The notes: generated by a model from the letters alone, not told the origin. A stretch of DNA of 64,000 nucleotides from a bacterium (GCA_021158245.1 JAGGVB010000195.1:265-64264); one strand, 5' to 3'; positions 402-61,367 are shown, counted from the stretch's first letter. Made by a program: numbers and translations.

Positions 402-3400
402 ATGAAAAAAAGATATGCGTTGCTTTTTTCATCCCTTCTTTCGATTCTGATTATTTTAACATCTACCCACTATTTAATTGCCGGAACAACCGGCAAAGTA
501 AGAGGAATAATTACTGACGGGACAACGGGACAGCCTTTGATCGGCGCAAATATTATACTGGAAAATACCTTTCTCGGCGCAGCAGCTAATTTAAAGGGAG
601 AGTACTATATAATTAATGTACCGCCGGGAATTTATACTATCCGTGCAACTATGATGGGCTATAAATCTCTTAGAATACAAAATGTCAGGGTTTCGGTTGA
701 CTTGACTACTACAATAAATATTTCTATGAATCCTGCAGTAGTTGAAACAGGGAAAAGCGTTACTATTGTAGCAAAGAGAGAAATGGTTGTAAAAGATTTA
801 ACCGCTTCCACGGCTGTTGTTGATGCAGCTGCAATGAGGTCTCTTCCAATCTCTGAGGTTTCAGAAGCTGTTCAACTGCAGGCAGGAATTGTTCGTGATG
901 CAGGAGGCGGGCTTCATGTACGCGGGGGCAGGAGCGGAGAAGTAAGTTACTGGATAGACGGAGTTCCCGTAACAGATGTTTATGACGGCAGTTCTGTGGT
1001 TGAAGTAAATAAAGACATGGTTCAGGAACTGCAGGTTGTAAGCGGAGCCTTTAATGCCGAATATGGGCAGGCGATGTCAGGTATAGTTAATATAACAACT
1101 AAACAGGGAAATAATAAATTCGGAGGCTCTTTCACTTCTTATATTGGCGATCACATTAGCAGTCATGAATCAATATTCATGGGTATTAACGATATTAATC
1201 CCCTTGCTCTGAAAAATATCGAAGCAAGTATCCACGGCCCGATTGTCAAAGATAAAATATTTTTCTATGTGAATGCACGTTCATACAGATCAGACGGATG
1301 GCTTTATGGTAAACGCAAATACAATCCGGAAGCTTCAACAATTGCAATGCAGGGGATCAATGGTGACTGGCTGGAAGAAAACGCCCCTGACTATTTTGCC
1401 TCCAGTAAAGTTACAGACCCCGTGAATAATCTTCGTGGTTTCCAGTATATTTTGGGTACTAACAGGCAAATTGATTCTCTTGTCACATGGCAGATGCTGC
1501 CGGACTCCAAAAGAACTGTTCCTGACAGTTTCTACACTTATTACAACATGCTTAGAAATAATCATAAAAACGGTAAAGGCGACGGAGCCTATGTACCCAT
1601 GAACTGGAATAAAAAATTCTATGCACAGGCAAAATTGATTTACAGAATTACTCCGTCTTTGCGGTTAACGTATAATTTTATATATGATAATGTCCGATAC
1701 AATGACTATGAGAGAGATTTTCTGCTTAATCCTGACGGCGCAACAAGTAAATTCCGTGTCGGAGAAACACATATTGTGCAGTTGGTCCATACAATAAGCA
1801 ACAGGACATTTTACAAAATAGCTTTCTCTCATTATACAAAAGGATTTAAAAGGTATCTCTACGAAGACATGCATGACCCCGGATATGTTCATCCTGATTT
1901 TTCTCTGCAGCAGGCTTATTCATTTAAAACAGGAGGAACATCTAATACTAATTTCCAAAGAGAAACAGGAACATCTGTTCTCAAAGGAGATCTGACAAGC
2001 CAGATTACTAATACGCACCAGATAAAAACAGGTGTTGAATACAGGGTGTATAAAGTATCTCAACAGGATATCTCTTTAAGGCCCTCTGTTAATCAGTCTC
2101 AGATAGACCTTGTTTTTGACAACCCGTATATAAAGACACGCGTAATGCCTGACAGTACAATTTATTCAAGCAGATATGTTCATCATCCAAAAGCTATATC
2201 CGCTTATATTCAGGATAAGATGGAATTTAAAGATATGATTGTAAATATCGGTGTCAGATTCGACTATTTTTCTCCTGACGGAGTTGTACTTAATGATGAA
2301 AGCGATCCGACTATTACAAATCCTATACGTGCTGAAAACAGATATCACGATTGGGGAAGTGACGGAGTGCCCAACACTCACGATGCTGACGGTACGGAAG
2401 GCAACGGAATATGGGATGCAGGAGAACCTGCAGTCACTATCTCAGAGAGGGAAAATTATTGGTACGGCAGAGCAAAAAGCAAGTTTCAGGTTAGTCCCCG
2501 TATAGGCTTTTCATTCCCTATTACCGAAGGGGGAGTTATCCATTTTTCCTACGGCCACTTTTTCCAGGTACCAAGGTTTGAGCTGCTTTATCAGAACCCT
2601 GATTTTGAGCTCGGATCAGGAACGGGTAATGTAGGAATTATAGGCAATGCAGACCTTGAGCCGGAGCAGACCATCAGCGGAGAGCTGGGGATTCAGCAGA
2701 TGCTGAGTGATGATATAGCTTTATCCTTAACCGGTTATTTTCGCGATGTGAGGAACCTTACAGGAACAAGGGCTAAGGAGATAGTACTTTTCGGAGGAGC
2801 TGCAAAGTACAGTAAATTCATCAACAGTGATTTCGGATTTATCAGAGGTATTGTTGTGGCTCTTGATAAAAGATTCTCAAATAAGTTCAGTGCGTCAGTT
2901 GATTATACCATGCAGATTGCAAAAGGCACTAATTCAGATCCTGATCAGGCACGGAATGCGCTTGCAGGCGGAACCCTTCCTGAAGTTCAGCTTACTTCTT
3001 TAAACTGGGATCAGAAACATACTGTTAATGCATCTTTTTCATACAGTGATAAGAACTGGGGTTTCAGCCTTCTCGGGCAGTGGGGAAGCGGATTTCCATA
3101 CACACCGAGAGCTACTACAGACATATCCACCCTTCTTACAAACAGCGAGAGAAAACCGGGAACGTACAATGTTGATTTAAGGGCTTACAGGGATTTCAAA
3201 ATAGGATCAGGTAAATTGACTCTGTTTATGAGAGTTTTCAATCTGTTTGATACTTTAAATGAGCTTAATGTATACAATGATACAGGCCGCGCAGGATTTA
3301 CTACAGATGAATTAACAGCAGCATCAACCAATCCTTCGCAGTATATAAATTCTCTTAATCAATGGTTTACAAATGCAGCATTTTATTCTCAGCCGAGAAG

Positions 3401-3431
3401 AGTTGAGATAGGGTTTACATATTCTTTTTAG
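402..3431 (+). CDS. TonB-dependent receptor (carboxypeptidase-regulatory-like N-domain, plug, barrel)
   Basis: Signal peptide; GKVRGIITD..TGQPLIGANI; plug LHVRGGRSGEVSYWIDGVPV; GNADLEPEQT; C-terminal Phe (GFTYSF). Confidence 0.92.
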   Translation: MKKRYALLFSSLLSILIILTSTHYLIAGTTGKVRGIITDGTTGQPLIGANIILENTFLGAAANLKGEYYIINVPPGIYTIRATMMGYKSLRIQNVRVSVDLTTTINISMNPAVVETGKSVTIVAKREMVVKDLTASTAVVDAAAMRSLPISEVSEAVQLQAGIVRDAGGGLHVRGGRSGEVSYWIDGVPVTDVYDGSSVVEVNKDMVQELQVVSGAFNAEYGQAMSGIVNITTKQGNNKFGGSFTSYIGDHISSHESIFMGINDINPLALKNIEASIHGPIVKDKIFFYVNARSYRSDGWLYGKRKYNPEASTIAMQGINGDWLEENAPDYFASSKVTDPVNNLRGFQYILGTNRQIDSLVTWQMLPDSKRTVPDSFYTYYNMLRNNHKNGKGDGAYVPMNWNKKFYAQAKLIYRITPSLRLTYNFIYDNVRYNDYERDFLLNPDGATSKFRVGETHIVQLVHTISNRTFYKIAFSHYTKGFKRYLYEDMHDPGYVHPDFSLQQAYSFKTGGTSNTNFQRETGTSVLKGDLTSQITNTHQIKTGVEYRVYKVSQQDISLRPSVNQSQIDLVFDNPYIKTRVMPDSTIYSSRYVHHPKAISAYIQDKMEFKDMIVNIGVRFDYFSPDGVVLNDESDPTITNPIRAENRYHDWGSDGVPNTHDADGTEGNGIWDAGEPAVTISERENYWYGRAKSKFQVSPRIGFSFPITEGGVIHFSYGHFFQVPRFELLYQNPDFELGSGTGNVGIIGNADLEPEQTISGELGIQQMLSDDIALSLTGYFRDVRNLTGTRAKEIVLFGGAAKYSKFINSDFGFIRGIVVALDKRFSNKFSASVDYTMQIAKGTNSDPDQARNALAGGTLPEVQLTSLNWDQKHTVNASFSYSDKNWGFSLLGQWGSGFPYTPRATTDISTLLTNSERKPGTYNVDLRAYRDFKIGSGKLTLFMRVFNLFDTLNELNVYNDTGRAGFTTDELTAASTNPSQYINSLNQWFTNAAFYSQPRRVEIGFTYSF

Positions 3432-3446
3432 TACGGAGTTTATATA

Positions 3447-6400
3447 ATGAATAAAATATTAAACAGAACCATTATTGTACTCTTGTTACTCTCTTTCAGT
3501 TCGATATTTGCCCAAAGCGGGAGGCAATACAGGCGTTCTTCAGTAATGCGCGGGAATTTGGTGAAGACTGTATTTGGTAACTGGGGAGTAATCGGACAGC
3601 CTGCCGAGAAAGGCGACAGAGGGGCCTGGATTTATGACAACGACGGCTACATAGGAGACGTAAGCCCTTTGGTTGGTGCTGAAGTTGTTTCACAGGATAA
3701 GACATTCCACTCTGTTGTTGTATGCCCCGTTGACAGGCCGACAAAACAGCATGAGTTGTCGCCATCGGGGCAGTATTGGGGATTTGAACCTGTTGCAGGA
3801 TATATCAATGAAGGGAAAGAAGGCGTTTCGCTTTTCAGTGATCCTGCTTCATGGCCGAGTCTTTGGCCTGATAAAATGAACGATCCTGAAGATGCAGGCT
3901 GGCCGGGTTCATGGAATGGCTTTTTCGGAAAAACTACAACAGCATCTGAAGAGTGTTATTTTGTAATGGATGACAATAACGATCAGGAATTTAATTATTC
4001 TGAAAATAATAAATGGCATGTGGCATTTAAGCCTGATGCGGCTGATCCGTCCAGAAATGGATTGGGGCTCGTTGTAAAAGTCCGTGCGATGCAGTGGTCG
4101 GATTTTTTGGCTCAGGATTGTATTTTCTGGCTTTATGAAATAACAAACACAAGTACAACAGATTACAGTAAAGTTGTTTTCGGTATGCTTGTAGGCACAT
4201 ATGTGGGAGTAACATCTACTGAAAATTACAATGAATATGATGACGACTATTCATTTTTTGATGTTCAGAATGATTTGACTTTTACTGCAGATTATGATGA
4301 CAACTGCAGCAGAAATCCGCGCTGGGTTGGAGATGTTGGAGTCGTAGGTTATGCATTTCTCGAAAGTCCAGGCAATCCTTACGACGGAATAGACAATGAC
4401 CATGACTCTGACAGCAATCCTTATATACACGGCACAGGCCCGTTTTTCTCTGAGGATGATTTTAAGAGCAGTGTAATCATGCCTGGTGACAAAGTTGTTC
4501 TTATTGACGATAACTACAACAGAACAGTAGTGGAAGTGCCAAACTATGATACTACTTTTGTAACAAGAGGTACAACAACAGGCCAGCATGCAGCAATTAG
4601 TATAGTACCGGGGGAGACTGAACTTGCTGAAGGTAATGTGATTTTTAAGGACGGGAAGCAATCCATTAATCCCAATGCCTACGATGGAATAGATAATGAT
4701 CTTGACGGACTGATAGATGAAAATTATTATCTTCATTACAGGCAGATCAGGAAGGATCAAAAAGGGCATACTCTGATTGATATATTGAGCCCTGTACGCC
4801 ACAAGGACTATATCAATGGAATAGGTGTGAATGATCCCTTGATTGATGAAAGACGCGATGACGGTATTGACAATGATGGTGACTGGAACTCCGAGTATGA
4901 CGATGTGGGAGCAGACGGGATTATGGGTACAAACGACAGGGGAGAAGGAGACGGTATCCCCACTCCCGGAGAGCCCAATTTTGATCAGACGGATGTTGAT
5001 GAATCAGATCAGATCGGCCTTACAAGTTTTGAATATTTTACTCCGTCAAATGATTTTTCAATGGCTGATGATGAGGATTTATGGAAACGTCTTTCTCCCG
5101 GGCATTTTGAAGTACCTGAATCAATAGTTAACAATAAACCTCAGCGGGGTGAGGACGGAGACTTTTTTTACGGCTCAGGATACTTTCCTCTCAGGGCAGG
5201 AGAGACTCAGCGGTTTTCTCTTGCACTTGTTTACGGTGATGGCGGCGGGCCTGATATGGATATTACTGATTTAATGAACAATAGAAAAACAGTTCAGAAA
5301 ATATACGATAGTGATTATAGATTCCCGCCTGCCCCGGATAAACCGAAACTGAAGATTGTACCCGGAGATGGGAAGGTAACTCTTTACTGGGACAGAAAAT
5401 CCGAAGAATCTTATGATCCTGTTTTGCATGAATATGATTTTGAGGGTTACAAAATATACAAAGCTACTGACCATAATTTCAATGAAGTATTTGATGTAAC
5501 AGATGCAAGCGGTACTAAAATATCGTACAAACCTCTTGCCCAGTTTGATGTAAAAGATGAGTATGAGGGGTATTTCAGAGCAGGTGAAGATTTATTCCAG
5601 CAGAGCAAAGGAGCATCTTTTTATCTTGGTGAAAACAGCGGTTTAAAGCACAGTTTCGTTGATACTGATGTTGAAAACGGGAGACGGTATTTCTATGCTG
5701 TTGTGTCTTATGACAGAGGAAATGAAGAAACAAATATTTTCCCCAAAGAGTGTGACAAACGAATTGATGTCCTGCCCTCAGGAGAAGTAAAAACATTTCA
5801 GAATACAGCTGTTGTTATTCCAAATGCACCTGTAATTGGTTATAAACCTCCTGACGGCAGTGTTAAAATAAATTCAGATAATATCATCGGCACAGGATCT
5901 GTTTATTATAAGGTTGTTGATGAAGAAGCTTTGACGGGGCATAAATACAGAATTGAATTTTTTGATACTTCGGATGACGGAATTGACAATAATGATAATT
6001 GGGATCAGACTAAAGACGACGTGGGAACGGACGGTATTCCAAATTCAAATGACACAGACGATACCGAAAATAATGGTTTACCTGATTCAGGAGAGCCCAA
6101 TCTGGATTATTTCGATGCAGCCGAATACTTTGTACCAATTACCACATCTTATTCAGTTCGCGATTTGACCGGATTAACAGAGTTGTTTTACAGCAAGGAC
6201 ACTCTTTATGTAAGGCTGGCTCATAAACATTTAATAAAAAGTTCTGTAAAAGTTACAAATCAGAACGGTGAGGATGTCCCTGATAGTAAATTAAATATTG
6301 ATTATGTGAATGGAAAAATACGCGGCAAAAATAACGGTGATTTACTTTATGGAGAAAGCTATTCTATTACTTACCAATACTACCCTGTATACAGAAGCCT

Positions 6401-7301
6401 GTATATGGAAAAGAGCCCATATGCAGGGGAAACAAAGGATACATATAACTTCGATGGAATTTTCCTCTCTTTCCAGAATGAGTGGAATGTTATACTTGAT
6501 ACTTTAGCATCAGAATGGAGTACTCCGAACAAAGGCTATAATTTTACGGTAAATATAATTGATACATATTTCGGTTCAGAACATTTGCTTGGGTTAAGAC
6601 ATCCTTCCGATTATCAGATTATTTTTAATGATGCAATTGTAGATACTTCTCTTGAAATGACAAAGTATTTTGTAAAACCGATTCCGGTTAATTTCCGCAT
6701 CTGGAATAAGACTGACCGGAAGTTTATTGATTTTATCTATAATGATACTGACAGAAATCAGGTTCTTTCTCCTTATGATGAACTGATATTTGTAGAGGGA
6801 TATGAACCTGGTAAGACATTTTTTACATGGGATATATTTTTTACAAGCCTCACTGATACTACATACTCCTTTGGTACAGGAGATACCTTAACTATCAAAA
6901 TAAAAAAACCGTTCAGAGCCGGAGATATTTTTGAATTCAGTACTGAAACACCGAGTATTGATAATTCAGTTGCATCCAGTCAAATGGATGAGATAAAAGT
7001 CGTACCCAATCCTTATGTTTCTGCAACTGCCCATGAACTGCCTTTACCGCCTGCAATAACCAGCGGGCGCGGTGAAAGAAAAATAGATTTTATACATCTT
7101 CCTGTGAATTCAAAGGTCCATATATTCACTGCAATGGGTGAGCATGTAATTACTCTTGAACAGGACGGTTCAATGTTTAACGGCACTTTATCCTGGAATC
7201 TTAAAACAAAAGAGAATCTTGATGTTGCTTCAGGTATTTATTTTTACGTTGTAGAATCTCCTGCAGGAGTTAAGCGCGGGAAATTGGGAATAATTAAATA
7301 A
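3447..7301 (+). CDS. Large secreted protein with acidic DGIDND/GEP repeats, FN3-like segment and T9SS-like C-terminal domain
   Basis: SPI-type signal; repeated YDGIDND motifs; PPAPDKPKLKIVPGDGKVTLYWD; C-terminus IKVVPNPY...WNLKTKENLDVASGIYFYVVE. Confidence 0.8.
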   Translation: MNKILNRTIIVLLLLSFSSIFAQSGRQYRRSSVMRGNLVKTVFGNWGVIGQPAEKGDRGAWIYDNDGYIGDVSPLVGAEVVSQDKTFHSVVVCPVDRPTKQHELSPSGQYWGFEPVAGYINEGKEGVSLFSDPASWPSLWPDKMNDPEDAGWPGSWNGFFGKTTTASEECYFVMDDNNDQEFNYSENNKWHVAFKPDAADPSRNGLGLVVKVRAMQWSDFLAQDCIFWLYEITNTSTTDYSKVVFGMLVGTYVGVTSTENYNEYDDDYSFFDVQNDLTFTADYDDNCSRNPRWVGDVGVVGYAFLESPGNPYDGIDNDHDSDSNPYIHGTGPFFSEDDFKSSVIMPGDKVVLIDDNYNRTVVEVPNYDTTFVTRGTTTGQHAAISIVPGETELAEGNVIFKDGKQSINPNAYDGIDNDLDGLIDENYYLHYRQIRKDQKGHTLIDILSPVRHKDYINGIGVNDPLIDERRDDGIDNDGDWNSEYDDVGADGIMGTNDRGEGDGIPTPGEPNFDQTDVDESDQIGLTSFEYFTPSNDFSMADDEDLWKRLSPGHFEVPESIVNNKPQRGEDGDFFYGSGYFPLRAGETQRFSLALVYGDGGGPDMDITDLMNNRKTVQKIYDSDYRFPPAPDKPKLKIVPGDGKVTLYWDRKSEESYDPVLHEYDFEGYKIYKATDHNFNEVFDVTDASGTKISYKPLAQFDVKDEYEGYFRAGEDLFQQSKGASFYLGENSGLKHSFVDTDVENGRRYFYAVVSYDRGNEETNIFPKECDKRIDVLPSGEVKTFQNTAVVIPNAPVIGYKPPDGSVKINSDNIIGTGSVYYKVVDEEALTGHKYRIEFFDTSDDGIDNNDNWDQTKDDVGTDGIPNSNDTDDTENNGLPDSGEPNLDYFDAAEYFVPITTSYSVRDLTGLTELFYSKDTLYVRLAHKHLIKSSVKVTNQNGEDVPDSKLNIDYVNGKIRGKNNGDLLYGESYSITYQYYPVYRSLYMEKSPYAGETKDTYNFDGIFLSFQNEWNVILDTLASEWSTPNKGYNFTVNIIDTYFGSEHLLGLRHPSDYQIIFNDAIVDTSLEMTKYFVKPIPVNFRIWNKTDRKFIDFIYNDTDRNQVLSPYDELIFVEGYEPGKTFFTWDIFFTSLTDTTYSFGTGDTLTIKIKKPFRAGDIFEFSTETPSIDNSVASSQMDEIKVVPNPYVSATAHELPLPPAITSGRGERKIDFIHLPVNSKVHIFTAMGEHVITLEQDGSMFNGTLSWNLKTKENLDVASGIYFYVVESPAGVKRGKLGIIK

Positions 7302-7331
7302 TCGGTTATGTCAGATAACCCGGAGATATCC

Positions 7332-8360
7332 ATGCAAAATAAGATAAAAAAAATAACTTTCTTGCTTGTGATTCTGGCCGGAAGCCTTGCAGTGCAGAAA
7401 ATTGAAGCACAGTCAAAAGTGGGTACTTCATCAGCAGCGTTTCTTGGGATTGGAATTGGTTCACGTGCTGCTGCAATGGGAGGCGCTTTTACAGCATTAG
7501 CAAATGATGCATCTGCTTTGTATTATAATCCGGGCGGTATTGCGAGGATGGGAAAATCCCAGTTTGTTTTTTCTCATACTAACTGGATTGTTGATACAAA
7601 TCTGAACTGGATTGGCCTGGTAATTAAACTTGACAATTCCAATGCTGTCGGTTTGAGTATTACACAGCTTGATTACGGCCAGGAGGAAGTGACAAATGTT
7701 TATCATCCTGAGGGAACAGGTGAGATGTGGACAGCAAAAGACCTTGTTCTTGCTCTTTCATACAGCCGTTTGCTGACTGACAGATTTTCAATAGGCGGCA
7801 GTGCAAAATACATTCAGCAAAAACTCTGGAATGAATCGGCATCAGCATTCGCCATTGATGTAGGGCTGCTTTTTATTACTGATTTTAAGGACATGAAGAT
7901 AGGCATGAGTATTTCAAATTTTGGTAATGATATGCGAATGCAGGGAAAGGATCTTTTAAAGAGAATTGATATTGATCCTGATCATTTGGGAGATAACGAA
8001 ACCATTGTAGGGAATCTGAAAACCAATTCATGGCCTCTTCCCCTGTTTTTCCGCGTAGGCGTATCAATGGATGTTGTCAAAATCGCAAGGAACAAAATTA
8101 CATTAGCAGCAGATGCGTTCCGTCCAAGCAATAACTCCGGAAGTGTTAATGTCGGCGGAGAGTTTTCGTTTAATAATATGTTTTTCCTGAGAGGCGGGTA
8201 TAAATCTTTGTTTATGAAAAAAACAGAAGAGGGGTTTACAGCAGGTATTGGAGTAAATGTCCCTATGTCCGGCGGATATACATGGTGCGTTGATTATACT
8301 TATATGGATTTTGGAGTTTTTGAAAATATAAAAATGATTTCAGCATCAGTAAAATTTTAA
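7332..8360 (+). CDS. PorV/PorQ-family (FadL-like) outer-membrane beta-barrel
   Basis: GTSSAAFLGIGIGSRAAAMGGAFTALANDASALYYNPGG hallmark N-terminus; ends in Phe; ATG 7332 follows GGAG (ORF track starts at 7308). Confidence 0.85.
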   Translation: MQNKIKKITFLLVILAGSLAVQKIEAQSKVGTSSAAFLGIGIGSRAAAMGGAFTALANDASALYYNPGGIARMGKSQFVFSHTNWIVDTNLNWIGLVIKLDNSNAVGLSITQLDYGQEEVTNVYHPEGTGEMWTAKDLVLALSYSRLLTDRFSIGGSAKYIQQKLWNESASAFAIDVGLLFITDFKDMKIGMSISNFGNDMRMQGKDLLKRIDIDPDHLGDNETIVGNLKTNSWPLPLFFRVGVSMDVVKIARNKITLAADAFRPSNNSGSVNVGGEFSFNNMFFLRGGYKSLFMKKTEEGFTAGIGVNVPMSGGYTWCVDYTYMDFGVFENIKMISASVKF

Positions 8361-8446
8361 GGTTTTTTCAGGAGGGAGGTGAGAAATTCAAATTAATACG
8401 TGGTTTATATGAAAACAGGGGAATTTGACAATTTAGGAGGTAGGAA

Positions 8447-10504: not shown

Positions 10505-10545
10505 GCTGGATTTAATTATTCGCTTAAATTAAAATCCGATCAGAT

Positions 10546-10580
10546 AACAGGGGAGGGATGAAATTCTCTCCCCTGTTTTA
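10546..10580 (+). terminator. Intrinsic terminator-like hairpin inside the glucan locus
   Basis: AACAGGGGAGGGA-TGAAAT-TCTCTCCCCTGTT followed by TT. Confidence 0.75.
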
Positions 10581-10620
10581 AAAAGGCAGAGAATAATAAT
10601 CCAGGAAGGTAAAAATAGTT

Positions 10621-13600
10621 TTGATAAAAGCAGTGAAAAAAACAATAATCAGGGTTTATATTTTCCTTTTGATTATTCTGAATACACCTGTTTTTTCTCA
10701 GAATAGCGTATCAGTTACATTCTGCTGTTATCCTTCAGGAGAAAACGTTGTAAGAGCATTCGTTCCTGGTACTTTTAACAACTGGGGGCCTAATTCAAAC
10801 GGACGGATTTATCTGGGATCGCTATCACAGATGACCTTTATAGATTCGCTGTGCCTTTATGTCAAAAAACAAGATCTTACGGAAGGGAGTACTTACGAAT
10901 ACAAGTTTTACGAACACTACAATGATTCGGGAACAGATTATGCATGGATTACTGATCCTCTTAATCCTGGAAAGAATTCTTCTAATTACAATAATTCAGT
11001 ACTCCATATAAAAAAAGGTTTTATTTTTGAGATTGCACCGGGGAACGGTTCAATTATTAATGATTCCCGGCCTGTTTTCAGTGCAAGTCTGTGTATTGAT
11101 GCAAAGGATTCCATTCTTACTAACCAGTCGGAAATCTTCATTGATAATGTGTTTTACGGGAATGTTGATGATATCTTTATACCTGAGTTATCCATTGTTC
11201 ATTCAAAACTGCCCTATCTTAATAACGGACTGCATTCTGTCAGGATTGAGGTTAAAACCTTAAACGGGTTGTCATTTTGCGATTCAACTGAATTCTCAGT
11301 TAAAGCAGGAGGTGTGTATTTTGTAACTCCGGATATCGACAGTCTTCTTGCTCCTGTCTATAATGTAAGATGGAAAGTTGAAACATCCCAAAAAGCAGTA
11401 AAGAAAATTACGTTCAATCAAATCGGCCGGTACCCGATTAATTTTACACCAAAATCTTCAGGACTGTATGAATATGCGATAACAGCATCGCATGGAAGAA
11501 ATCAATATCAAGTGATTGTGGAAGACACTGCTGGGGCCATATCATATTCAGATACTTTAAATCTGGTTTATCCTGTTTCAAAAAAACCGGCAGCGAGAAT
11601 AGATTTTGAGCTTCAGGGGGATGATATCTTGCTAAATGGCATCTGTGAGTATCATTACGGACAAAAATTGTCATATATCTGGAAGAATCAGGATACAAAT
11701 TCTCTTGTTATTGAAGAAGCTGAGTCTTGTACAACGCGCACCGTACGAATTCCAAAACCGGTTTTACCGGGAGATTATTCATTTAAGCTGACAATTTACG
11801 ATGAAAATGGTGATTCGGGTTCTGCTGTAAATTTTTTTACTGTGAACCGTGATTCAACTGTTACTTTTCCTGATTATGCTGCTGTTCCTCAATGGGTAAG
11901 AGATACGCGTATTTATTCATTGTTTTTTAAATCTTTTACTGCTGAAGCTACGATTGCAGCAGCAACACAAAAGCTTGATTATATAAAAGATATGGGATTT
12001 AATGTTATTTGGGTACTGCCTGTCATGGATGTTGAGGGAGAAATTGACAGAAATACAAATATAGGGTATAATATAATTAATTTATATAAAATAGAGCCGT
12101 CTTACGGAACCTCAGAAGATTTCAGGCAATTTGTAAAAGAGGCGCACAGAAGAGGTCTTAGGGTCATTCTTGATGTTACACCTAATCATGTCAGCCGTTC
12201 ACATCCTATTGCCCTTGATGTACGTTCAAAAGGTATTTACAGCAGATATTATGACTTTTTTCAGCACAAAATTATCCCGCATAATGATAACGGCCTGGGC
12301 CAGACAGTATCTCAGGACGGCATTGTTTATTATACGGGATTTTCAAGTGCACTCTTAAACTGGAACTGGTCAGATGATGAAGCCCGCAAGTACATGCTGG
12401 ATGTTTATACATATTGGCTGCAGGAGTACAACATAGACGGTTTCAGGTTTGACGTTTATTGGGGGCCTCACAGGCGTTACGGAAGAGAAGATTTTGATAT
12501 CCATTTGAGGGAAGCTTTGCGAAAGCAAAAAGCCGACATTTTCCTCCTCGGAGAGACCTCAGGTACCGGAGAAGGTACAGAGGCTCAGTATGCTGATAAG
12601 GGAGGAGGAATAGACGCTGCGTATGACTGGGTATTCAGCGGAACAGTTGCGTCATTCCCGTCTGTAGTATCTTTGGATGGAGTTTTGTATAACAGCGGAT
12701 TCAGGCCCGGGCAAAATTCATATTTTTTAAGATTTCTTGAAAATCATGATGAATTACGTGTGGCATACAGGTACAACAGTATTAACAAAACAATACCCGT
12801 ATCAACAGCCATGTTTCTATCAACCGGAATCCCTATGATCTGGCAGGGGCAGGAAGTGGGAATGGGTTATGAAATGACCGGATCAAAGGAGTATCTTGCA
12901 CGTTCAATCGTACAATGGGATTTATCCGGAAGAGAGAAGATTCTCGTCCATTATCAGAAACTTGCCCAGATAAGAAAACAGTTCCCTGCATTCGGACACC
13001 AGCCTGAAGATACGAATGGTGATAATAAAATTAACAGTGCAGATGAAAATGTTATACCGCGCTTAAGTACCTCGGATTCTAAAGTTTTTGCTTTTGCAAG
13101 GCCGTGGAAAGACAGAAACGGACTCGTTGTAATCAACATGGGCCCTTCCCGGACAGATGTTCAGGTTAACCTGAATCTGGCAAATTGGGCCAAATTTTCA
13201 CATGTATATTCCGGTGATAACAAGTACTTTTTGAATGACTTATACAACAATAATTCAATCATGGAACAGGGGAAAGAACTTGATACACTAAGTGTGAATT
13301 TAGGGCCTTATGATGTTGCTGTATTTACAATCTCCTGTACAAAAGATTCCTTGATTCTGCCTGAAATCAAAACCGGATTTAAACAGGATAATGAAAAACA
13401 TTTACCTGCAGAATTTCAACTTATGCAGAATTTCCCAAATCCCTTTAATGGAGAGACTGCCATCAATTACAATATTGTGTGCAGCGGAGAGGTTGAACTC
13501 TCAATTTTTAACATAAGAGGACAGAGGATAAAAACAATTATTAACAAGCATCAAAACCCTGGTTTTTATTCAGTATCATGGAATGGCAGGGATGACGGCG

Positions 13601-13686
13601 GTTTAAGTGTCAGCAGCGGGATATATTTATGTGTTCTCAGGTTTAATAAAATTATTAATGTTAAGAAATTAATTTTAAGCAGATAA
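10621..13686 (+). CDS. GH13 alpha-amylase-family enzyme with N-terminal CBM48-like domain and T9SS CTD
   Basis: Catalytic motifs DGFRFDV, LLGET, FLENHDE; LDVTPNH; CTD QNFPNPFNGET; TTG start. Confidence 0.9.
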   Translation: MIKAVKKTIIRVYIFLLIILNTPVFSQNSVSVTFCCYPSGENVVRAFVPGTFNNWGPNSNGRIYLGSLSQMTFIDSLCLYVKKQDLTEGSTYEYKFYEHYNDSGTDYAWITDPLNPGKNSSNYNNSVLHIKKGFIFEIAPGNGSIINDSRPVFSASLCIDAKDSILTNQSEIFIDNVFYGNVDDIFIPELSIVHSKLPYLNNGLHSVRIEVKTLNGLSFCDSTEFSVKAGGVYFVTPDIDSLLAPVYNVRWKVETSQKAVKKITFNQIGRYPINFTPKSSGLYEYAITASHGRNQYQVIVEDTAGAISYSDTLNLVYPVSKKPAARIDFELQGDDILLNGICEYHYGQKLSYIWKNQDTNSLVIEEAESCTTRTVRIPKPVLPGDYSFKLTIYDENGDSGSAVNFFTVNRDSTVTFPDYAAVPQWVRDTRIYSLFFKSFTAEATIAAATQKLDYIKDMGFNVIWVLPVMDVEGEIDRNTNIGYNIINLYKIEPSYGTSEDFRQFVKEAHRRGLRVILDVTPNHVSRSHPIALDVRSKGIYSRYYDFFQHKIIPHNDNGLGQTVSQDGIVYYTGFSSALLNWNWSDDEARKYMLDVYTYWLQEYNIDGFRFDVYWGPHRRYGREDFDIHLREALRKQKADIFLLGETSGTGEGTEAQYADKGGGIDAAYDWVFSGTVASFPSVVSLDGVLYNSGFRPGQNSYFLRFLENHDELRVAYRYNSINKTIPVSTAMFLSTGIPMIWQGQEVGMGYEMTGSKEYLARSIVQWDLSGREKILVHYQKLAQIRKQFPAFGHQPEDTNGDNKINSADENVIPRLSTSDSKVFAFARPWKDRNGLVVINMGPSRTDVQVNLNLANWAKFSHVYSGDNKYFLNDLYNNNSIMEQGKELDTLSVNLGPYDVAVFTISCTKDSLILPEIKTGFKQDNEKHLPAEFQLMQNFPNPFNGETAINYNIVCSGEVELSIFNIRGQRIKTIINKHQNPGFYSVSWNGRDDGGLSVSSGIYLCVLRFNKIINVKKLILSR

Positions 13687-16094
13687 TGAAAAGATATACA
13701 CAAATTATTATAATTCTCCTGCTGTGTGCAGGCTCTCTTTTTGGGCAGAATTCATACAGAGCCGGCCATTATCAGGAATATTTTGTAAAAAATAACAGAA
13801 TAATTGTCAAGTTTGATTCTGTTGATATTTCCATATCCTTTTTAAAAGATAATATTTTCAGGTTTGCAATATCCGGGAAAGATGCAGAAAATGAAAGTGT
13901 TTCCGAAGTAGTTTATAAAAATGCGTTACTCCTTGATAGTTTAAAAATTAAATCCTGCCGAAATGCAATTTCCATTTCATATAAAAAAGTAAATTTGAAA
14001 GTAAATACAAATCCTTTGTCAATAAAAGTTGTAAATGAAAAGGGAAATACAATTTTAGAAGGTTTTCAGGAAGAAATGGTTAAAATTTCCGGACAATCCG
14101 TTAGGATAACCTTTAAAATGCAGAAGAACGACCATTTTTACGGTTTCGGAGAAAAGTGTCTGCCTTTTGACCGCAGGGGATACAAGTTCAGAATGTACAA
14201 TACCCAGGTTTATGGCTACAGAAAAGAAACATCGGTAATGAGTATAAATATTCCTTTCTTCATTAATCCTGCAGGTTACGGGCTCTATTTTGATTCCTTT
14301 AAACCGTCATTTTTCGATCTCGGCAATTCTGATAAGGATTGTTTTTACTTCAGCGCTAATGAGAGGAATCTTTCATTTTATATGATTATCGGCAATAGTA
14401 TAAAAAAAATTCTTTCCAATTATACATGGCTGACCGGAAGACAGCCCATGCCGCCCAGATGGGCAATGGGTTACCTACAGTCAAAATACGGGTATAAAAA
14501 CGAAAAAGAGGCCAGGGATATTGTAAATTCATTTATTAAAAAAAGAATACCTTTAAGTGCTTTGATTCTCGATCTGTACTGGTTCGGCGGAATGCAGAAG
14601 ATGGGTGCACTGAATTGGGATGAGAAATTATGGCCTGGATCGAATTCAATGGTAGAGGATTTTCTCTCTTCAGGTGTTAGAACTGTTTTGATAGAAGAAC
14701 CATATGTAAATATTCAATCGACAAATTTTAAGGAGGCCGATTCTTTATCATATTTTGGATTCGATAAATCCGGCTCTGCATTAATTGATTCAACCTGGGC
14801 CGGACAGTGTGCTGTCATTGATATGACAAATCCGAAAGCAGCTGAATGGTGGTGGAAAAAGCACGTCCCTCTTATTAAGACCGGAATTGCCGGATGGTGG
14901 ACGGATTTGGGAGAACCTGAATCAAATCCTCCTGAAATGAATTATTTGAAAGGCAGATCCTGCACGATTAATAATATCTATAATTTAATATGGAGCAGAA
15001 CTCTTTTTAAAGGATATGAATCGGATTTTCCGAACAAACGCGTTTTTATGCTGACAAGATCCGGTTTTGCAGGAATGCAGAGATGGGGCACCTTCCCGTG
15101 GTCAGGCGATGTGGACAGAAGCTTCGGAGGACTTAAGTGCCAGATTCCAATAATGCTTGGAATGGGTATGTCCGGTGTCGGGTTCATGCATTCGGATATC
15201 GGAGGTTATGTGGGAAAACCTGATTCCGAACTCTATGCGAGATGGATAGCGTTTGGTGCATTTTCCCCGATAATGCGTGCACATGGAGTTGAAAAAGGTA
15301 CAGAGCCGTGGTCTTTTGGCGAAGAGACAGAAAAGATTGCGAGAAGATATATTGATATCAGGTATAAACTTAGACCCTACAATTACTCCCTTGCCTACCT
15401 CAACCATATTAAAGGATGGCCTCTTGCAAGGCCTCTGGTTTTCAATTATCCTGATGATGAGAAAGTTTTAAATATGTCCGATGAATATCTGTGGGGTGAT
15501 GATTTCCTTGTTGCTCCTGTACTTGAAAAAGGTGTCAGAACACGCGATGTATATTTCCCTGAGGGAGAATGGATTGATTTCTGGAGCGGCAAAATATTTT
15601 ACGGCAAAAGTACACAAAAAGTAAGCGCTCCTTTGGACAAAATACCTGTATTTATAAGAAACGGCGCAATTATTCCGCAGCTTTACAGCTCTTCTCCAAA
15701 CAAGCAGCTTAACAGAGATACTCTTGTTGTAGATTTTTATCCGAAAGGGTATTCGAAATTTACTCTGTATGAAGATGACTGTGAAACGAATGAATATATG
15801 TCAGGAATGTACGCAACAACATTTTTTTATCTGAAAGAAGAAGTTAATCTTGTAAATGTTTATATAGGGCCTTGTACGGGAACATATTCCAATAAGCCTG
15901 ATATTAGATTATATTTGCTGAAAATACACAATGTTAAAACCAAACCTGTTTTTGTTTCCGTAAACAAAGGAATTATTTCAAAAAAGAACAAAAAATTTGC
16001 AGAAAGATGGATATATAACAGTCCGGATAAAACACTGAAGATATTCATTTCTGCTCATTCTAATAAATCTTACTTTATCAAATACTGCTTGTAA
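13686..16094 (+). CDS. GH31 alpha-glucosidase-family glycoside hydrolase
   Basis: GWWTDLGEPE nucleophile and WSGDV acid/base motifs; LTGRQPMPPRWAMGYLQS; start overlaps upstream stop (TAATG). Confidence 0.92.
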   Translation: MKRYTQIIIILLLCAGSLFGQNSYRAGHYQEYFVKNNRIIVKFDSVDISISFLKDNIFRFAISGKDAENESVSEVVYKNALLLDSLKIKSCRNAISISYKKVNLKVNTNPLSIKVVNEKGNTILEGFQEEMVKISGQSVRITFKMQKNDHFYGFGEKCLPFDRRGYKFRMYNTQVYGYRKETSVMSINIPFFINPAGYGLYFDSFKPSFFDLGNSDKDCFYFSANERNLSFYMIIGNSIKKILSNYTWLTGRQPMPPRWAMGYLQSKYGYKNEKEARDIVNSFIKKRIPLSALILDLYWFGGMQKMGALNWDEKLWPGSNSMVEDFLSSGVRTVLIEEPYVNIQSTNFKEADSLSYFGFDKSGSALIDSTWAGQCAVIDMTNPKAAEWWWKKHVPLIKTGIAGWWTDLGEPESNPPEMNYLKGRSCTINNIYNLIWSRTLFKGYESDFPNKRVFMLTRSGFAGMQRWGTFPWSGDVDRSFGGLKCQIPIMLGMGMSGVGFMHSDIGGYVGKPDSELYARWIAFGAFSPIMRAHGVEKGTEPWSFGEETEKIARRYIDIRYKLRPYNYSLAYLNHIKGWPLARPLVFNYPDDEKVLNMSDEYLWGDDFLVAPVLEKGVRTRDVYFPEGEWIDFWSGKIFYGKSTQKVSAPLDKIPVFIRNGAIIPQLYSSSPNKQLNRDTLVVDFYPKGYSKFTLYEDDCETNEYMSGMYATTFFYLKEEVNLVNVYIGPCTGTYSNKPDIRLYLLKIHNVKTKPVFVSVNKGIISKKNKKFAERWIYNSPDKTLKIFISAHSNKSYFIKYCL

Positions 16095-16117
16095 TAATAA
16101 ACTGGCAAGGAGGAGAC

Positions 16118-18328
16118 ATGGCAATAGTTGATTATCTTATAGTGATAATTTATATAATTGCAATTATTTTTGTCGGCATAATAGTTCAGCGAAAAGCATC
16201 GGCTGGTATTGATTCATATTTCCTCGGCAACAGGCATCTGCCCTGGTGGGCTTTGGGAGCATCAGGCATGGCTTCCAATCTTGATGTGAGCGGAACCATG
16301 ATAAATACTGCATGGATTTTTGCACTCGGCGCAACAGGAATGTTTATTGAGATCAGAGGCGGTGTCACTCTTATAATGGCATTTCTTATGATATTTATGG
16401 GCAAATGGAACCGCAGAGCAAGAGTCATGACTATGGCAGAGTGGATGCGGTTCAGATTCGGGCCCAAAAGGGAAGGGGATGTCGCAAGGCTGGTTTCCGC
16501 TATCTCTATAATTATAGTAACTATTGCAATGGTGACCTATTTTGCAGTAGGCTCAGGTAAATTTATCAGTACATTCCTCGGCATACCTGATATAGGCAGA
16601 ATAGAAGATCCTCTTACTCAGGAAGAGGTAAAATCTCTTGAAAGTTCAATCGAGATTGTGAAAAACAGGACGGATATTTTTCTGTCTGATGTTACTCAGG
16701 CATCTATGGAACTGCCTATGGCAAAATCGATGGAACGGGGAATGCAAAACATTGAATCCGGGTTTTTATCTATAAAAGAACACCCGAATAATATTACAAA
16801 ATTATCGCGATTATCCCTGAAATTAAAAGATCAGTCTAATTTAATAAAATCAATCCGGCGGTCAGATAAATTTACTCAAATAATAAATAAAGAGCCTGAC
16901 GGAGATTTATCTCTGCATTTTAATGACTTGTCAGCTCAATTCCTGAATTTTGAGCAGCAGTTTCAGAATTCGGCCTGTTATTCGATTTTTATTAGGGCAC
17001 AATTTCTTGCTGCTTTTATGATGATATTTCTTGCCATGATTTATACTGTTGCCAGCGGATTGTATGGAGTTGTCTGGACAGATGTTTTCCAGGGGGCGCT
17101 GATTTTCGGAACAATATTCTATATATGTGTTACAACTTTTACAAATTTTAGAGTCCCGGAGAAATTTTTTATCTCAATACCCATGAAAGACGGTACTTTT
17201 CAGGCGCTGTCAACAACGAGAGAGGTGTGGACAAGCATTATACCGTCATTTCAGCTGCATTTTCCTGCTGATTCTGTTTATTCAATTTACAATCTGTTCG
17301 GAATTGCAATTCTTTTCTATTTGATAAAAGTAACTATTGAGGGAAGTGGAGGAACCTCTGGATACATGATTCAGAGGTATTTTGCATCTAAGAGCGACAG
17401 AGAGGCCGGGCTGCTCTCTCTGTTCTGGACATTCCTGCTCTCATTCAGATGGCCGTTTATTGCTTCAATTGCTGTTATGGGTGTTGTTTTCGGCACAACC
17501 AACGGAGTGATTAACGACCCCGAAACAGTGTTGCCTATTGTTATAAATAAACTGGTTCCTGCCGGAGTAAAAGGATTTCTCGTTGCAGGGTTGATTGCAG
17601 CAGCAATGTCGACTTTTGACTCTACGGTTAATGCGGGGGCATCGTACTGGGTCAAGGATATTTATCAGGCATATTTAAACCCGAAAGCATCTGAAAAGAA
17701 ATTAATGCTTCACAGCAGGTGGGCATCAGTTATAATTGTAATTTTCGGACTTATATTCAGCCTGTTCATTAAAAATATTAATGAAATTTGGGGATGGATA
17801 ACAATGAGCATCGGGGCAGGAATGATCATCCCGACTCTTGTTCGCTGGTACTGGTGGAGGCTTAACGGATATGGGTTTGCAATAGGAACTGCTGCAGGAA
17901 TGATAGCTGCAATTATCCAGAGAATTATGTTTCCTCATGTGCCTGAGTATGTTTCGTTTGCTTTTGCCAGCAGTATCTCCTTTGCTGCCATGCTTATAGG
18001 AACATACGCTACCAGGCCGACAGATGACGATGTACTTTTTGAATTCTATAAAACGACCCGTCCGTTTGGGTTTTGGAGAAGTGTTCGTAAAAGATTTCCC
18101 GAATCTTTGCTTGCGAAAATTGATACTGAAAACCGCAGAGATAAACGTGCAATATGGCTTGCAGTTCCGTGGCAGCTTGTAATGTTTCTTATGTGGATAA
18201 CGCTTATTATGAGACAGTGGGTGTACTTTTTTGAACTTCTTGCTGTATTAATTGCCCTTTCAGCCAGTCTCTATTTTATGTGGTTCAGGCATCTCTCAAA
18301 GGAAGTCAAAGTAGAAGCTGAAGTTTAA
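16118..18328 (+). CDS. Sodium:solute symporter (SSS family) with a large soluble insertion
   Basis: SYFLGNRHLPWW, SGLYGVVWTD, QRYFASKS, GLIAAAMSTFDS motifs; hydrophilic segment at about aa 158-292. Confidence 0.9.
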   Translation: MAIVDYLIVIIYIIAIIFVGIIVQRKASAGIDSYFLGNRHLPWWALGASGMASNLDVSGTMINTAWIFALGATGMFIEIRGGVTLIMAFLMIFMGKWNRRARVMTMAEWMRFRFGPKREGDVARLVSAISIIIVTIAMVTYFAVGSGKFISTFLGIPDIGRIEDPLTQEEVKSLESSIEIVKNRTDIFLSDVTQASMELPMAKSMERGMQNIESGFLSIKEHPNNITKLSRLSLKLKDQSNLIKSIRRSDKFTQIINKEPDGDLSLHFNDLSAQFLNFEQQFQNSACYSIFIRAQFLAAFMMIFLAMIYTVASGLYGVVWTDVFQGALIFGTIFYICVTTFTNFRVPEKFFISIPMKDGTFQALSTTREVWTSIIPSFQLHFPADSVYSIYNLFGIAILFYLIKVTIEGSGGTSGYMIQRYFASKSDREAGLLSLFWTFLLSFRWPFIASIAVMGVVFGTTNGVINDPETVLPIVINKLVPAGVKGFLVAGLIAAAMSTFDSTVNAGASYWVKDIYQAYLNPKASEKKLMLHSRWASVIIVIFGLIFSLFIKNINEIWGWITMSIGAGMIIPTLVRWYWWRLNGYGFAIGTAAGMIAAIIQRIMFPHVPEYVSFAFASSISFAAMLIGTYATRPTDDDVLFEFYKTTRPFGFWRSVRKRFPESLLAKIDTENRRDKRAIWLAVPWQLVMFLMWITLIMRQWVYFFELLAVLIALSASLYFMWFRHLSKEVKVEAEV

Positions 18329-18343
18329 TAAATTGAGGAGTTT

Positions 18344-19834
18344 ATGGAAAACAGAAAAAGCGGCCTTCTCCTTCATATAACCTCTCTGCCGTCTAAGTTC
18401 GGCATAGGAGATTTGGGCCCTTCGGCATATAAATTTGTGGATTTCTTAAAAGAGGCAGGCCAGCATTTTTGGCAGATTTTACCTTTAAATCCAACTGACC
18501 TTTATCACGATAATTCACCATACCGCAGTGTTTCGGCATTTGCATTTAACACTCTTTTAATTAGCCCTGAGTTTTTGGTGCACGACGGGCTTGTTGATTC
18601 TGATGATATTAATATCAATATTGATAAAAACAGAATTGATTATAAAAAAGTCACATCCTGGAAGCAGGGGGTTTTTGAGAAAGCATTTTCGAAATTTTCT
18701 TTATTAAAAAATGAAACAGAGTTTGAAGAATTCTGCATTAAAAATCAGTCATGGTTGGAAGATTTTGCTCTTTTTACTGCTTTAAAAGAACATTTTAAGG
18801 GCAAGTCGTGGATTGAATGGCCTGATCCTTTAAAAAACCGCAACAAAGAGATTTTGTCAAAAATGCGTAATGAACTCGGATCAGGAATCATGAAAGTAAA
18901 GTTCCTCCAATATATTTTTTATAAGCAGTGGAACCAGTTAAAGAAATACTGTAATGATAATGGAGTAGAGATAATCGGAGATATCCCGATTTATGTGACA
19001 CTTGACAGTTCAGACGTGTGGACGAATTCCGAGCTTTTTAAACTTGACGAAAATAAAAATCCGATTAAAGTTGCAGGCGTACCGCCTGATTATTTCAGTA
19101 AAACCGGCCAGTTATGGAGTAATCCTGTTTACAGATGGGATATCATGAAAAAAAACAGGTACAAGTGGTGGATTGACAGGGTACGCCACAATGAAAATAT
19201 ATTTGATATATTCAGGATTGACCATTTTAGAGGATTTATTGCCTTTTGGGAAGTTGATGCTAAGGAAGATACGGCAAAGAACGGAACATGGGTTAAGGCT
19301 CCGGCAAAAGATTTTTTTCGTACTCTGACCGCTGAATTGCCCGGGCTAAAGATAATTGCAGAGGATTTAGGATCTATAACTCCTGATGTCGTAGAAATAA
19401 TTGATATTTTTAATTTTCCGGGTATGCGTGTTATACAATTCGCTTTCGGAAAGAATTTTCCGAAGAGTGAGCATTTACCGGATAATGTGATTACAAACTG
19501 TTTATTCTATACAGGAACTCACGATAATAACACTGTTAAGGGCTGGTTTAAAAAAGAGACTGATAAAAAGCAGCGCAGAAGAGTTTCTGAATATGCAGGG
19601 CAAAAAGTTACAAAGAAAAATGTAGCAGATATTATGATAAAACTTGTAATGGATTCAAAAGCAAATATCTGCATTATTCCGGTGCAGGATATTCTTTCAC
19701 TTGATGAAAAAAGCAGGATGAATATTCCTGCAATAAATAGAGGTAATTGGAGATGGAAGCTGAAAGAGGGGCAGTTAGAAAATACCATTGTTGCTCAATT
19801 ATCAAAGATGGTGAAAATTTATCGCAGGAAATAA
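18344..19834 (+). CDS. malQ: 4-alpha-glucanotransferase (GH77)
   Basis: RKSGLLLHITSLPS, GVPPDYFSKTGQLW.NP, RIDHFRGF, IIAEDLG, YTGTHDNNT. Confidence 0.95.
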   Translation: MENRKSGLLLHITSLPSKFGIGDLGPSAYKFVDFLKEAGQHFWQILPLNPTDLYHDNSPYRSVSAFAFNTLLISPEFLVHDGLVDSDDININIDKNRIDYKKVTSWKQGVFEKAFSKFSLLKNETEFEEFCIKNQSWLEDFALFTALKEHFKGKSWIEWPDPLKNRNKEILSKMRNELGSGIMKVKFLQYIFYKQWNQLKKYCNDNGVEIIGDIPIYVTLDSSDVWTNSELFKLDENKNPIKVAGVPPDYFSKTGQLWSNPVYRWDIMKKNRYKWWIDRVRHNENIFDIFRIDHFRGFIAFWEVDAKEDTAKNGTWVKAPAKDFFRTLTAELPGLKIIAEDLGSITPDVVEIIDIFNFPGMRVIQFAFGKNFPKSEHLPDNVITNCLFYTGTHDNNTVKGWFKKETDKKQRRRVSEYAGQKVTKKNVADIMIKLVMDSKANICIIPVQDILSLDEKSRMNIPAINRGNWRWKLKEGQLENTIVAQLSKMVKIYRRK

Positions 19835-50329: not shown

Positions 50330-50348
50330 TGTAATTAAGGGGAGTATA

Positions 50349-51353: not shown

Positions 51354-51367
51354 GTGTTTGGCTGAAC

Positions 51368-54932: not shown

Positions 54933-54957
54933 ATCAGTTAAGGAGTCAGAATATAAA

Positions 54958-56121: not shown

Positions 56122-56122
56122 A

Positions 56123-56926: not shown

Positions 56927-56955
56927 TGCTGAATAAGAAAATCGGGAATTTGTGT

Positions 56956-61349: not shown

Positions 61350-61367
61350 ATCAGGGAGAATATTCAG

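Follow-up and report, generated by a model that had tools for sequence, protein, structure and literature searches.

We describe a locus for the use of alpha-glucans in which, as we read it with some preference, a very large secreted protein takes the place that the SusD lipoprotein holds in Bacteroidota: kept at the cell surface by a dedicated outer-membrane barrel, it would lie beside a TonB-dependent receptor (TBDR) and aid the capture or hand-over of oligosaccharides. The locus lies in a 64,000-nucleotide (nt) stretch of bacterial DNA (GCA_021158245.1, JAGGVB010000195.1:265-64264), called the window below. Its core is a trio of adjacent genes for the receptor, a 1284-residue protein that we call the giant, and a barrel of the PorV/PorQ family. 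The observations behind our reading are gene content, signal peptides, a TonB-box alignment, conserved gene order, co-diversification of the three proteins, the co-occurrence of a distinctive C-terminal domain (CTD) with the barrel gene, and marine RNA that spans the gene junctions. On these grounds we take it for a locus of TonB-dependent nutrient uptake in which the receptor would have a partner at the surface. The window sequence comes from hydrothermal-vent metagenomes, and its nearest genome relative, at 90% identity, is a metagenome-assembled genome (MAG) of KSB1 (locus L046). The core comprises the following genes and segments, positions being counted from the first letter of the window.

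402..3431, + strand: TonB-dependent receptor, 1009 residues, with CarboxypepD_reg (residues 33-116), Plug (130-227) and an OMP_b-brl_4 barrel.
2349..2429, + strand: acidic insert of the pattern D.G.DG...GEP at receptor residues 650-676, found by a regular-expression scan and resembling two modules of the giant.
3447..7301, + strand: the giant, a 1284-residue secreted protein of a large unnamed family, with family matches only below threshold, at its CTD.
3513..5321, + strand: conserved all-beta N-terminal domain of the giant, residues 23-625, taken from a structural model, with DGIDND-type acidic loops.
5322..6986, + strand: FN3-like domain of the giant (residues 626-790), then variable beta-sandwich domains (791-1180), from the model and its fold matches to FN3/Ig chains.
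6987..7298, + strand: family-specific CTD of the giant, resembling type A with a conserved insertion of about 16 residues; CHU_C and TIGR04183 match below threshold, and the assignment follows an alignment.
7308..8360, + strand: outer-membrane barrel of the PorV/PorQ family, 350 residues, judged a dedicated paralogue (NF033709, 209.9 bits against a cut-off of 90).
8447..10504, + strand: CBM20 protein, 685 residues, with a canonical type-A CTD of type IX secretion systems (T9SS), lacking a catalytic domain (CBM_20, 26 bits against a cut-off of 23.3; TIGR04183, 44.7 bits).
10550..10571, + strand: terminator-like hairpin 3' of the CBM20 gene and of the four-gene core, a consensus match only.

The trio is conserved as a unit. 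In a scan that took one genome per species, a relative was present in 571 of the first 600 candidate stretches, and a scan of metagenomes gave 597 of 600. We used the 80 best genome loci, from MAGs of KSB1, Ignavibacteriota, Neomarinimicrobiota (Marinimicrobia), Fidelibacterota and Cloacimonetes, and counted a neighbour only where the contig reaches far enough. The TBDR gene lies directly upstream of the giant gene in 65 of 65 such orthologous loci and the barrel gene directly downstream in 68 of 68, with median gaps of 0 nt and 6.5 nt, respectively, and many 4-nt overlaps; the gaps in the window are 15 nt and 6 nt. Among 80 divergent metagenome loci, the TBDR gene is upstream in 54 of 57 and the barrel gene downstream in 54 of 59. 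The trio is also retained in nine sampled relatives with the family-specific CTD, whose giants are 32-62% identical to that of the window. A first-pass annotation of this DNA had proposed the three genes as one unit, and this neighbourhood survey agrees with it, with the correction that the conserved core holds four genes: the CBM20 protein follows the trio in 50 of 51 orthologous loci. Two of the metagenome exceptions (L113 and L118, which share one gene set) have the order receptor-barrel-giant, followed by a CBM20 protein and a GH13 enzyme; even with the order changed, the three genes remain neighbours. Two others have unrecognised open reading frames (ORFs) of 322-345 residues at or near the usual barrel position.

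The three proteins diverge together. Over 62 trios, Mantel correlations between pairwise distances are 0.92 for receptor and giant, 0.83 for giant and barrel, and 0.85 for receptor and barrel, each with p 0.001. Shared ancestry accounts for part of these values; when the CBM20 neighbour is controlled for, the partial correlations are 0.66, 0.73 and 0.51 in the same order. Judged by these distances, partners are evidently not shuffled between paralogous trio sets. Set against the window proteins, four of five sampled trios have receptors that are 34-40% identical, giants 32-42% and barrels 38-48%, and the orthologue in L081 reaches 49%, 62% and 51%. The trio receptors form their own group, the other TBDRs in the same loci being 24-28% identical and not followed by a giant gene. 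Two diverged copies of the module can also stand side by side, as in L093 (1-3759 on the minus strand, and 7215-15503), L054 (20144-23897) and L075 (2-2985); in the last two, the second copy adjoins the alpha-glucan copy.

The receptor lacks the marks of a SusC protein, and its locus lacks a SusD gene. It matches Plug at 38.2 bits (cut-off 23.9) and OMP_b-brl_4 at 56.6 bits (cut-off 30), does not match the SusC/RagA model TIGR04056, and obtains from NCBIfam only weak siderophore-receptor and plug matches. In an alignment with CirA, its segment KSVTIVA falls on the N-terminal TMVVTA, presumably the TonB box of that protein, and on this alignment we take KSVTIVA to be the TonB-box region. In a Pfam scan of the nine locus proteins, no match to the SusD family was found at E<=0.01, in keeping with the earlier statement that no gene here is of the SusD type, which thus holds in cis. 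The 20 largest other ORFs of the window, which belong to housekeeping and exopolysaccharide-synthesis genes, match neither SusD nor T9SS families. In one complete genome (CP070758.1; L081:6796-9978), the trio receptor is called as two ORFs of 639 and 313 residues; a Logan contig (L082) whose giant is identical to that of L081 has a single intact receptor of 1060 residues, and the split is either a frameshift or an assembly error.

The giant belongs to a very large family without a name. More than 3345 homologues in a large protein collection are all labelled hypothetical, the best 120 being 53-91% identical over the full length, and an exhaustive search of representatives clustered at 50% identity returned 1694 clusters at E<=1e-3 and 417 at E<=1e-30. 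In that search, the first ~830 residues are the conserved core of the family and the region downstream is variable. Mean identity to orthologues is 64.9% in the N-terminal domain (77 orthologues), 60% in the FN3-like domain and 39.7% in the variable region 791-1180; the N-terminal ~600 residues hold many invariant Asp, Glu and Trp. The protein begins with a signal peptide without cysteine (MNKILNRTIIVLLLLSFSSIFA/QSG), cleavable as the first reading of the sequence had it, and signal peptides are present on all exported proteins of the locus. We modelled the two halves separately. The N-terminal half (residues 23-640; pLDDT 78, pTM 0.83) is predicted to be all-beta, with long acidic loops that carry DGIDND motifs and probably bind calcium. 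The C-terminal half (pLDDT 85.5) comprises the FN3 domain, beta-sandwiches and the tail, and its fold matches include FN3/Ig chains, S-layer proteins, adhesins and PorZ. A profile search found no sequence relatives of the giant in the PDB, and Pfam and NCBIfam give no match to a catalytic family.

The tail of the giant is unusual. The last 104 residues can be aligned with the type-A tails of the CBM20 and GH13 proteins encoded nearby (PNPY..., GIYFY..., K..IIK), apart from an insertion, PAITSGRGERKIDFIH, at about residues 1202-1217 (about 7050-7097), which is absent from the aligned type-A CTDs. This motif-by-motif correspondence goes with 17.5 bits for TIGR04183 (cut-off 23). As a type-B CTD the tail also stays below threshold: CHU_C (PF13585) scores 25.4 bits on the tail alone and 19.2 bits on the whole giant against a cut-off of 27, and TIGR04131 does not match. 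Across the 77 orthologues, the CTD is as conserved as the core (64.5% against 64.9%), compared with 41.8% for the type-A CTD of the neighbour. The sole low-confidence stretch in the model of the C-terminal half, residues 1192-1207, overlaps the start of the insertion and is 68% identical across orthologues; low model confidence together with high conservation would be the pattern expected of a segment that folds only on its partner.

The distribution of this tail links it to the barrel. It is kept in eight of eight tested paralogues, at 38-57% identity, with an unalignable region before it. Among 111 full-length representatives of the family, 92 carry the special tail and about 14 an ordinary type-A tail. 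No barrel gene adjoins any of three sampled type-A-tailed members, and the two with a readable upstream side have no TBDR either. In the sampled loci the special tail occurs only where a barrel gene adjoins, and the two are thus associated. The type-A-tailed loners are L088:1822-4674, L094:212-3541, whose upstream side is cut, and L095:10001-13318; the L088 member has only the first ~290 residues of the giant core. By analogy, these observations fit a giant that is anchored non-covalently on its own barrel through an uncleaved tail, and the support, though indirect, is good. The PorQ-PorZ and PorV-PorU pairs are precedents for anchoring a CTD protein on a barrel. So are the pairs of PorP-type barrels with type-B CTD proteins, PG1035-PorP and SprB-SprF (PMC9143113). 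The idea that a dedicated PorV paralogue holds the giant, put forward from the sequence at the outset, has thus gained indirect support from the conserved, insertion-bearing CTD found only where a barrel adjoins and from these precedents. The insertion is a putative docking determinant, concrete enough to be tested.

The barrel itself is a member of the PorV/PorQ family in the wide sense. It scores 209.9 bits with NF033709 and 31.6 bits with Pfam PorV (cut-off 27), and falls below the equivalog cut-offs for PorV (NF033710, 84.5 bits against 250), PorQ (NF033711, 92 against 220) and PorV2 (NF052325, 71.7 against 325). Its only relative in the PDB is PorV of F. johnsoniae (6h3i_F, E 1.6e-6). These scores mark it as a distinct paralogue of the family; the earlier label 'PorV-like' holds for the generic PorV/PorQ model and fails for the PorV, PorQ and PorV2 models.

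RNA supports expression of the core in the ocean. The window's own sequence was found in no RNA run. A Marinimicrobia orthologue, L044, was detected in 22 seawater metatranscriptome runs, in contigs that are 92-100% identical and spread along the locus. Three runs have contigs that span the receptor/giant junction, three have contigs across the giant/barrel junction, and one contig spans the gap between barrel and CBM20 genes. These unstranded contigs point to expression, and probably to co-transcription, of the four-gene core of L044 in the ocean.

We turn to the genes around the core. ORF calls together with Pfam and NCBIfam profile scans were the basis for assigning the genes of the block, all of which are co-oriented on the + strand from LacI through GH77, and they reproduce the order and positions first proposed (LacI, TBDR, 1284-residue protein, barrel, CBM20, GH13, GH31, symporter, GH77). 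Outside the core, the block contains the following.

1..357, + strand: C-terminal part of a LacI-family regulator, its 5' side cut by the window start (Peripla_BP_3, 86.5 bits).
10621..13686, + strand: GH13 enzyme of the alpha-amylase family, 1021 residues, with a PKD-like domain and a type-A-like CTD (Alpha-amylase 151.2, FlgD_ig 32.5, Por_Secre_tail 22.1 bits).
13686..16094, + strand: GH31 alpha-glucosidase with a signal peptide (Glyco_hydro_31_2nd, 301.5 bits).
16118..18328, + strand: sodium:solute symporter (SSS), 736 residues (SSF, 112.8 bits, in two stretches).
18344..19834, + strand: GH77 4-alpha-glucanotransferase, MalQ (Glyco_hydro_77, 593.4 bits; NF011080, 676 bits).

The alpha-glucan components GH13, GH31, GH77 and CBM20 all score above their thresholds, as does the LacI regulator, which supports starch, glycogen or maltodextrin as the substrate first proposed for the locus. 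From their domains and tails, the CBM20 protein may bind glycans at the surface, and the GH13 enzyme is a candidate surface amylase. The LacI gene lies directly 5' of the TBDR gene in many orthologous loci, and LacI, GH13, SSS and GH77 are the neighbours in the 80 orthologous loci.

Divergent trios keep mostly the same company. In 55 divergent metagenome loci we sorted 262 flanking proteins by family, and found 48 with Por_Secre_tail type-A tails, 23 GH13, 18 PPIC-type rotamases, 17 LacI, 17 GDSL lipases, 15 CBM20, 13 CBM48, 6 GH130 and 2 GH2 proteins; the SusD family is not among the 25 most frequent families of these flanking proteins. The two canonical type-A-tailed proteins in the window locus and these 48 among the 262 are indirect signs of a working T9SS in the organism. 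We had expected widely varied carbohydrate-active enzymes around divergent trios, and this expectation was abandoned, as alpha-glucan genes dominate (23 GH13, 15 CBM20, 13 CBM48). Other settings do occur: one divergent trio (L091) adjoins two GH10 enzymes, a CBM9 protein and an SSS, another (L092) adjoins a GH13 enzyme with CBM48, and three (L087, L089 and L093) adjoin a GDSL lipase and FG-GAP/T9SS proteins. By these gene neighbourhoods, the module is mainly, not exclusively, an alpha-glucan device. An alternative architecture for polysaccharide utilisation loci (PULs), as the first-pass annotation called it, has moderate support, in that most contexts are alpha-glucan loci and a minority hold GH10, GH130, GH2 or the GDSL-lipase/FG-GAP set; as a general design it is plausible and less broadly supported than the synteny. 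Separately, next to trios without a glycoside hydrolase in the vicinity, GDSL-type lipases (some of them fusions with TPR repeats) and T9SS-tailed FG-GAP proteins turn up repeatedly, which hints at a non-glycan substrate for some copies of the module.

The mechanism that we propose would work as follows. The LacI-family regulator would control the alpha-glucan utilisation locus. The CBM20 protein and the GH13 enzyme, exported by type IX secretion via their ordinary type-A tails, would bind and cut the glucan at the surface. The giant would also be exported, its insertion-bearing tail would not be removed, and this tail would dock non-covalently on the adjacent barrel in the manner of PorZ on PorQ and PorU on PorV. 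The barrel-held giant would then stand next to or over the receptor, where the SusD lipoprotein stands in Bacteroidota, and would serve the capture or hand-over of oligosaccharides. These would pass the receptor with TonB energy and be trimmed in the periplasm by the GH31 enzyme, after which the symporter would import the sugars and the GH77 enzyme would reshuffle maltodextrins in the cytoplasm. Export by the T9SS and retention of the tail are predicted steps, as are contact between giant and receptor and a part in capture; that contact, and with it the role of a lid, is the weakest step of the proposal.

Several findings weigh against this mechanism. A Foldseek search with the N-terminal half of the giant found nothing in the PDB at E<=1e-3, the best match having E 5e-3 and a TM-score of about 0.2; with no confident structural relative of the N-terminal domain, a binding function is only presumed. 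The core domain of the giant is 65% identical between phyla, far above typical glycan-binding lids, and such conservation may be a sign that it does something else. Ordinary-tailed members of the family are found with no TBDR, so a receptor is not needed for the core domain to work. The RNA evidence consists of unstranded assembled contigs of an orthologue, in which DNA carry-over is possible. We also considered the acidic D.G.DG...GEP module as a general contact element, as it occurs both in the receptor and in the giant (residues 485-510, at 4899-4976, and residues 857-884, at 6015-6098). A regular-expression scan finds it in only 9 of 56 orthologous receptors, all of the KSB1 type, and we rejected it; being limited to this clade, it is not part of a general mechanism.

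Other explanations of the trio can be offered. The giant and barrel may form a self-contained surface pair, an adhesin, spacer or S-layer-like protein anchored as PorZ is on PorQ, which is co-expressed with the receptor and neither touches it nor takes part in transport, the receptor working alone as many glycan TBDRs outside Bacteroidota do. Consistent with this are the type-A-tailed family members that have no TBDR nearby, the generic character of the C-terminal half, an FN3/Ig chain with S-layer, adhesin and PorZ matches, and the trios that lie amid FG-GAP/T9SS proteins and GDSL lipases instead of glycoside hydrolases. We nevertheless hold it unlikely: the TBDR gene is directly upstream in 65 of 65 and 54 of 57 loci, often with overlapping stop and start codons, the distance correlation of receptor and giant is the highest of the pairs (r 0.92; partial 0.66), and the trio TBDRs stand apart from the other TBDRs of the same loci. 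The conservation of the N-terminal 600 residues, which are 64.9% identical between phyla and rich in invariant Asp, Glu and Trp, would suit an enzyme of an undescribed family, tethered beside the importer and acting on the polymer at the surface, and the only fold matches, all weak (TM-score ~0.2), are to beta-sandwich domains of glycoside phosphorylases, of GH94, GH149 and GH116 enzymes, of a GH174 fucanase and of some polysaccharide lyases. All of these matches have E above 1e-3, however, and several are to non-catalytic domains; there is no Pfam or NCBIfam catalytic family match, and the same core stands beside unrelated enzyme sets (GH13, GH10, GH130, lipases), which a general accessory protein fits better. 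We consider the enzyme improbable.

An export role for the receptor is more doubtful still. It would move the giant across the outer membrane, as Oar of Myxococcus moves the protease PopC, and the barrel would then hold the giant. The receptor does have the architecture of Oar, with a CarboxypepD_reg extension, plug and barrel, but so does the importer SusC (PMC6434023), and while the receptor gene always comes directly before the giant gene, type-A-tailed members of the family are apparently exported without an adjacent TBDR. Moreover, a route of secretion is already there, since the giant has a tail homologous to T9SS sorting domains and the proteins encoded beside it have canonical ones, and a LacI regulator, glycoside hydrolases and an SSS importer make an uptake context. 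We give such an exporter very little credence, and continue with the barrel-held giant as an aid to capture beside the receptor.

Among known systems, the locus is close in outline to the Sus system of Bacteroides thetaiotaomicron and to other PULs of the SusCD and RagAB kind. Like these, it is regulated and has a TBDR with a CarboxypepD_reg extension, a predicted surface GH13 enzyme, a non-catalytic protein predicted to bind starch at the surface, a periplasmic alpha-glucosidase and an inner-membrane transporter, and the gene after the receptor would encode a surface partner. It differs from them in having no SusD-family protein and a receptor outside the SusC/RagA model. The partner is all-beta, has 1284 residues and carries both a signal peptide and a T9SS-like tail, whereas SusD is a helical lipoprotein of ~550 residues; the third gene, for the PorV/PorQ-family barrel, is obligatory; and the surface proteins would use T9SS tails in place of lipid anchors.

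The barrel and giant in turn recall the PorQ-PorZ and PorV-PorU pairs of the Porphyromonas gingivalis T9SS attachment complex. Both consist of a PorV/PorQ-family barrel and a surface protein, and in the known pairs the docking CTD is kept; the only solved relative of our barrel is F. johnsoniae PorV (6h3i), and PorZ is among the fold matches of the C-terminal half of the giant. The barrel described here nevertheless fails the PorV, PorQ and PorV2 models, and the pair occurs in nutrient-utilisation loci with a TBDR, sometimes in more than one diverged copy per contig, and is not the secretion machinery itself. The pairs of a type-B CTD protein with a PorP/SprF-like barrel (PMC9143113) likewise join a large protein of the cell surface, whose sorting domain is non-standard, to a barrel of its own encoded next to it. 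There, too, the differences are plain: the barrel here is of the PorV/PorQ family, the tail aligns with type A, has an insertion and lies just under the CHU_C threshold, and a TBDR belongs to the unit. Oar of Myxococcus xanthus (PMC6434023) resembles our receptor in being a TBDR whose N-terminus is extended by CarboxypepD_reg and which has a TonB box; it serves to export a protease, and no giant or barrel gene is described beside it, whereas the context here is catabolic uptake.

Dedicated surface partners of TonB-dependent transporters are not new in themselves. BtuB-BtuG of Bacteroides and TbpA-TbpB of Neisseria are TonB-dependent transporters with a surface capture partner encoded alongside, and in both the partner is a lipoprotein, whereas the partner here would be delivered by the T9SS and held by a separate barrel. 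Two designs of this kind are known, SusD-type lipoprotein lids and TbpB-type lipoprotein co-receptors. A broader possibility is that much of the FCB superphylum outside the classical Bacteroidia (KSB1, Ignavibacteriota, Marinimicrobia/SAR406, Fidelibacterota and Cloacimonetes) possesses a third, in which receptor, barrel and a partner of ~1000-1600 residues with a new fold form one stable three-protein machine. We put this forward tentatively, as a proposal that has the odds somewhat against it.

We found no published description of the trio in open-access full texts, which does not prove its absence. In Melioribacter roseus, Mros0761-0759 are labelled 'SusC, SusD, SusE' in a starch operon beside GH13 and GH31 genes (PMC3534657); these may be the same trio, named by position. 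A homologue search made to tie the trio to a cultured organism returned only MAG proteins. Taken as a whole, the first-pass interpretation stands in part, the substrate, the absence of SusD in cis and the conservation of the trio directly and the anchoring by the barrel indirectly.

The locus matters for how glycan uptake is recognised in genomes. SusC/SusD is the paradigm of glycan uptake in Bacteroidota and the marker by which PULs are found in genomes and metagenomes. PUL prediction based on SusD cannot detect trio loci, and the trio is widespread in lineages with a part in the carbon cycle of sediments, wastewater and the dark ocean. If the three proteins do form one complex, type IX secretion would be linked to TonB-dependent import, barrels of the PorV/PorQ type would gain a role outside the secretion machine, and a function would be assigned to a 'hypothetical' protein family that runs to about 1,700 clusters at 50% identity.

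Some minor observations concern the neighbours. A PPIC-type rotamase of ~575 residues recurs beside divergent trios (18 of the 262 flanking proteins, in L096-L175), and in L092 (5342-7069) it lies directly upstream of the receptor; it may be a SurA-like periplasmic chaperone, a folding factor dedicated to the module. The GH31 enzyme has a cysteine in its signal peptide (13686-13760; MKRYTQIIIILLLCAGS), which, going by this segment, may be of the lipoprotein kind, with an atypical lipobox, and not a plain one. The Pfam model for the symporter (16118-18328) matches in two separate stretches, the best being residues 298-593 of 736. At the far end of the window, positions 50319-63998 hold an exopolysaccharide- or capsule-type cluster, whose members include an epimerase, a Wzz/GNVR tyrosine-kinase-type chain-length regulator, an ATP-grasp protein, a B12-binding radical SAM enzyme, a GT4 glycosyltransferase and a FemAB-like acetyltransferase.

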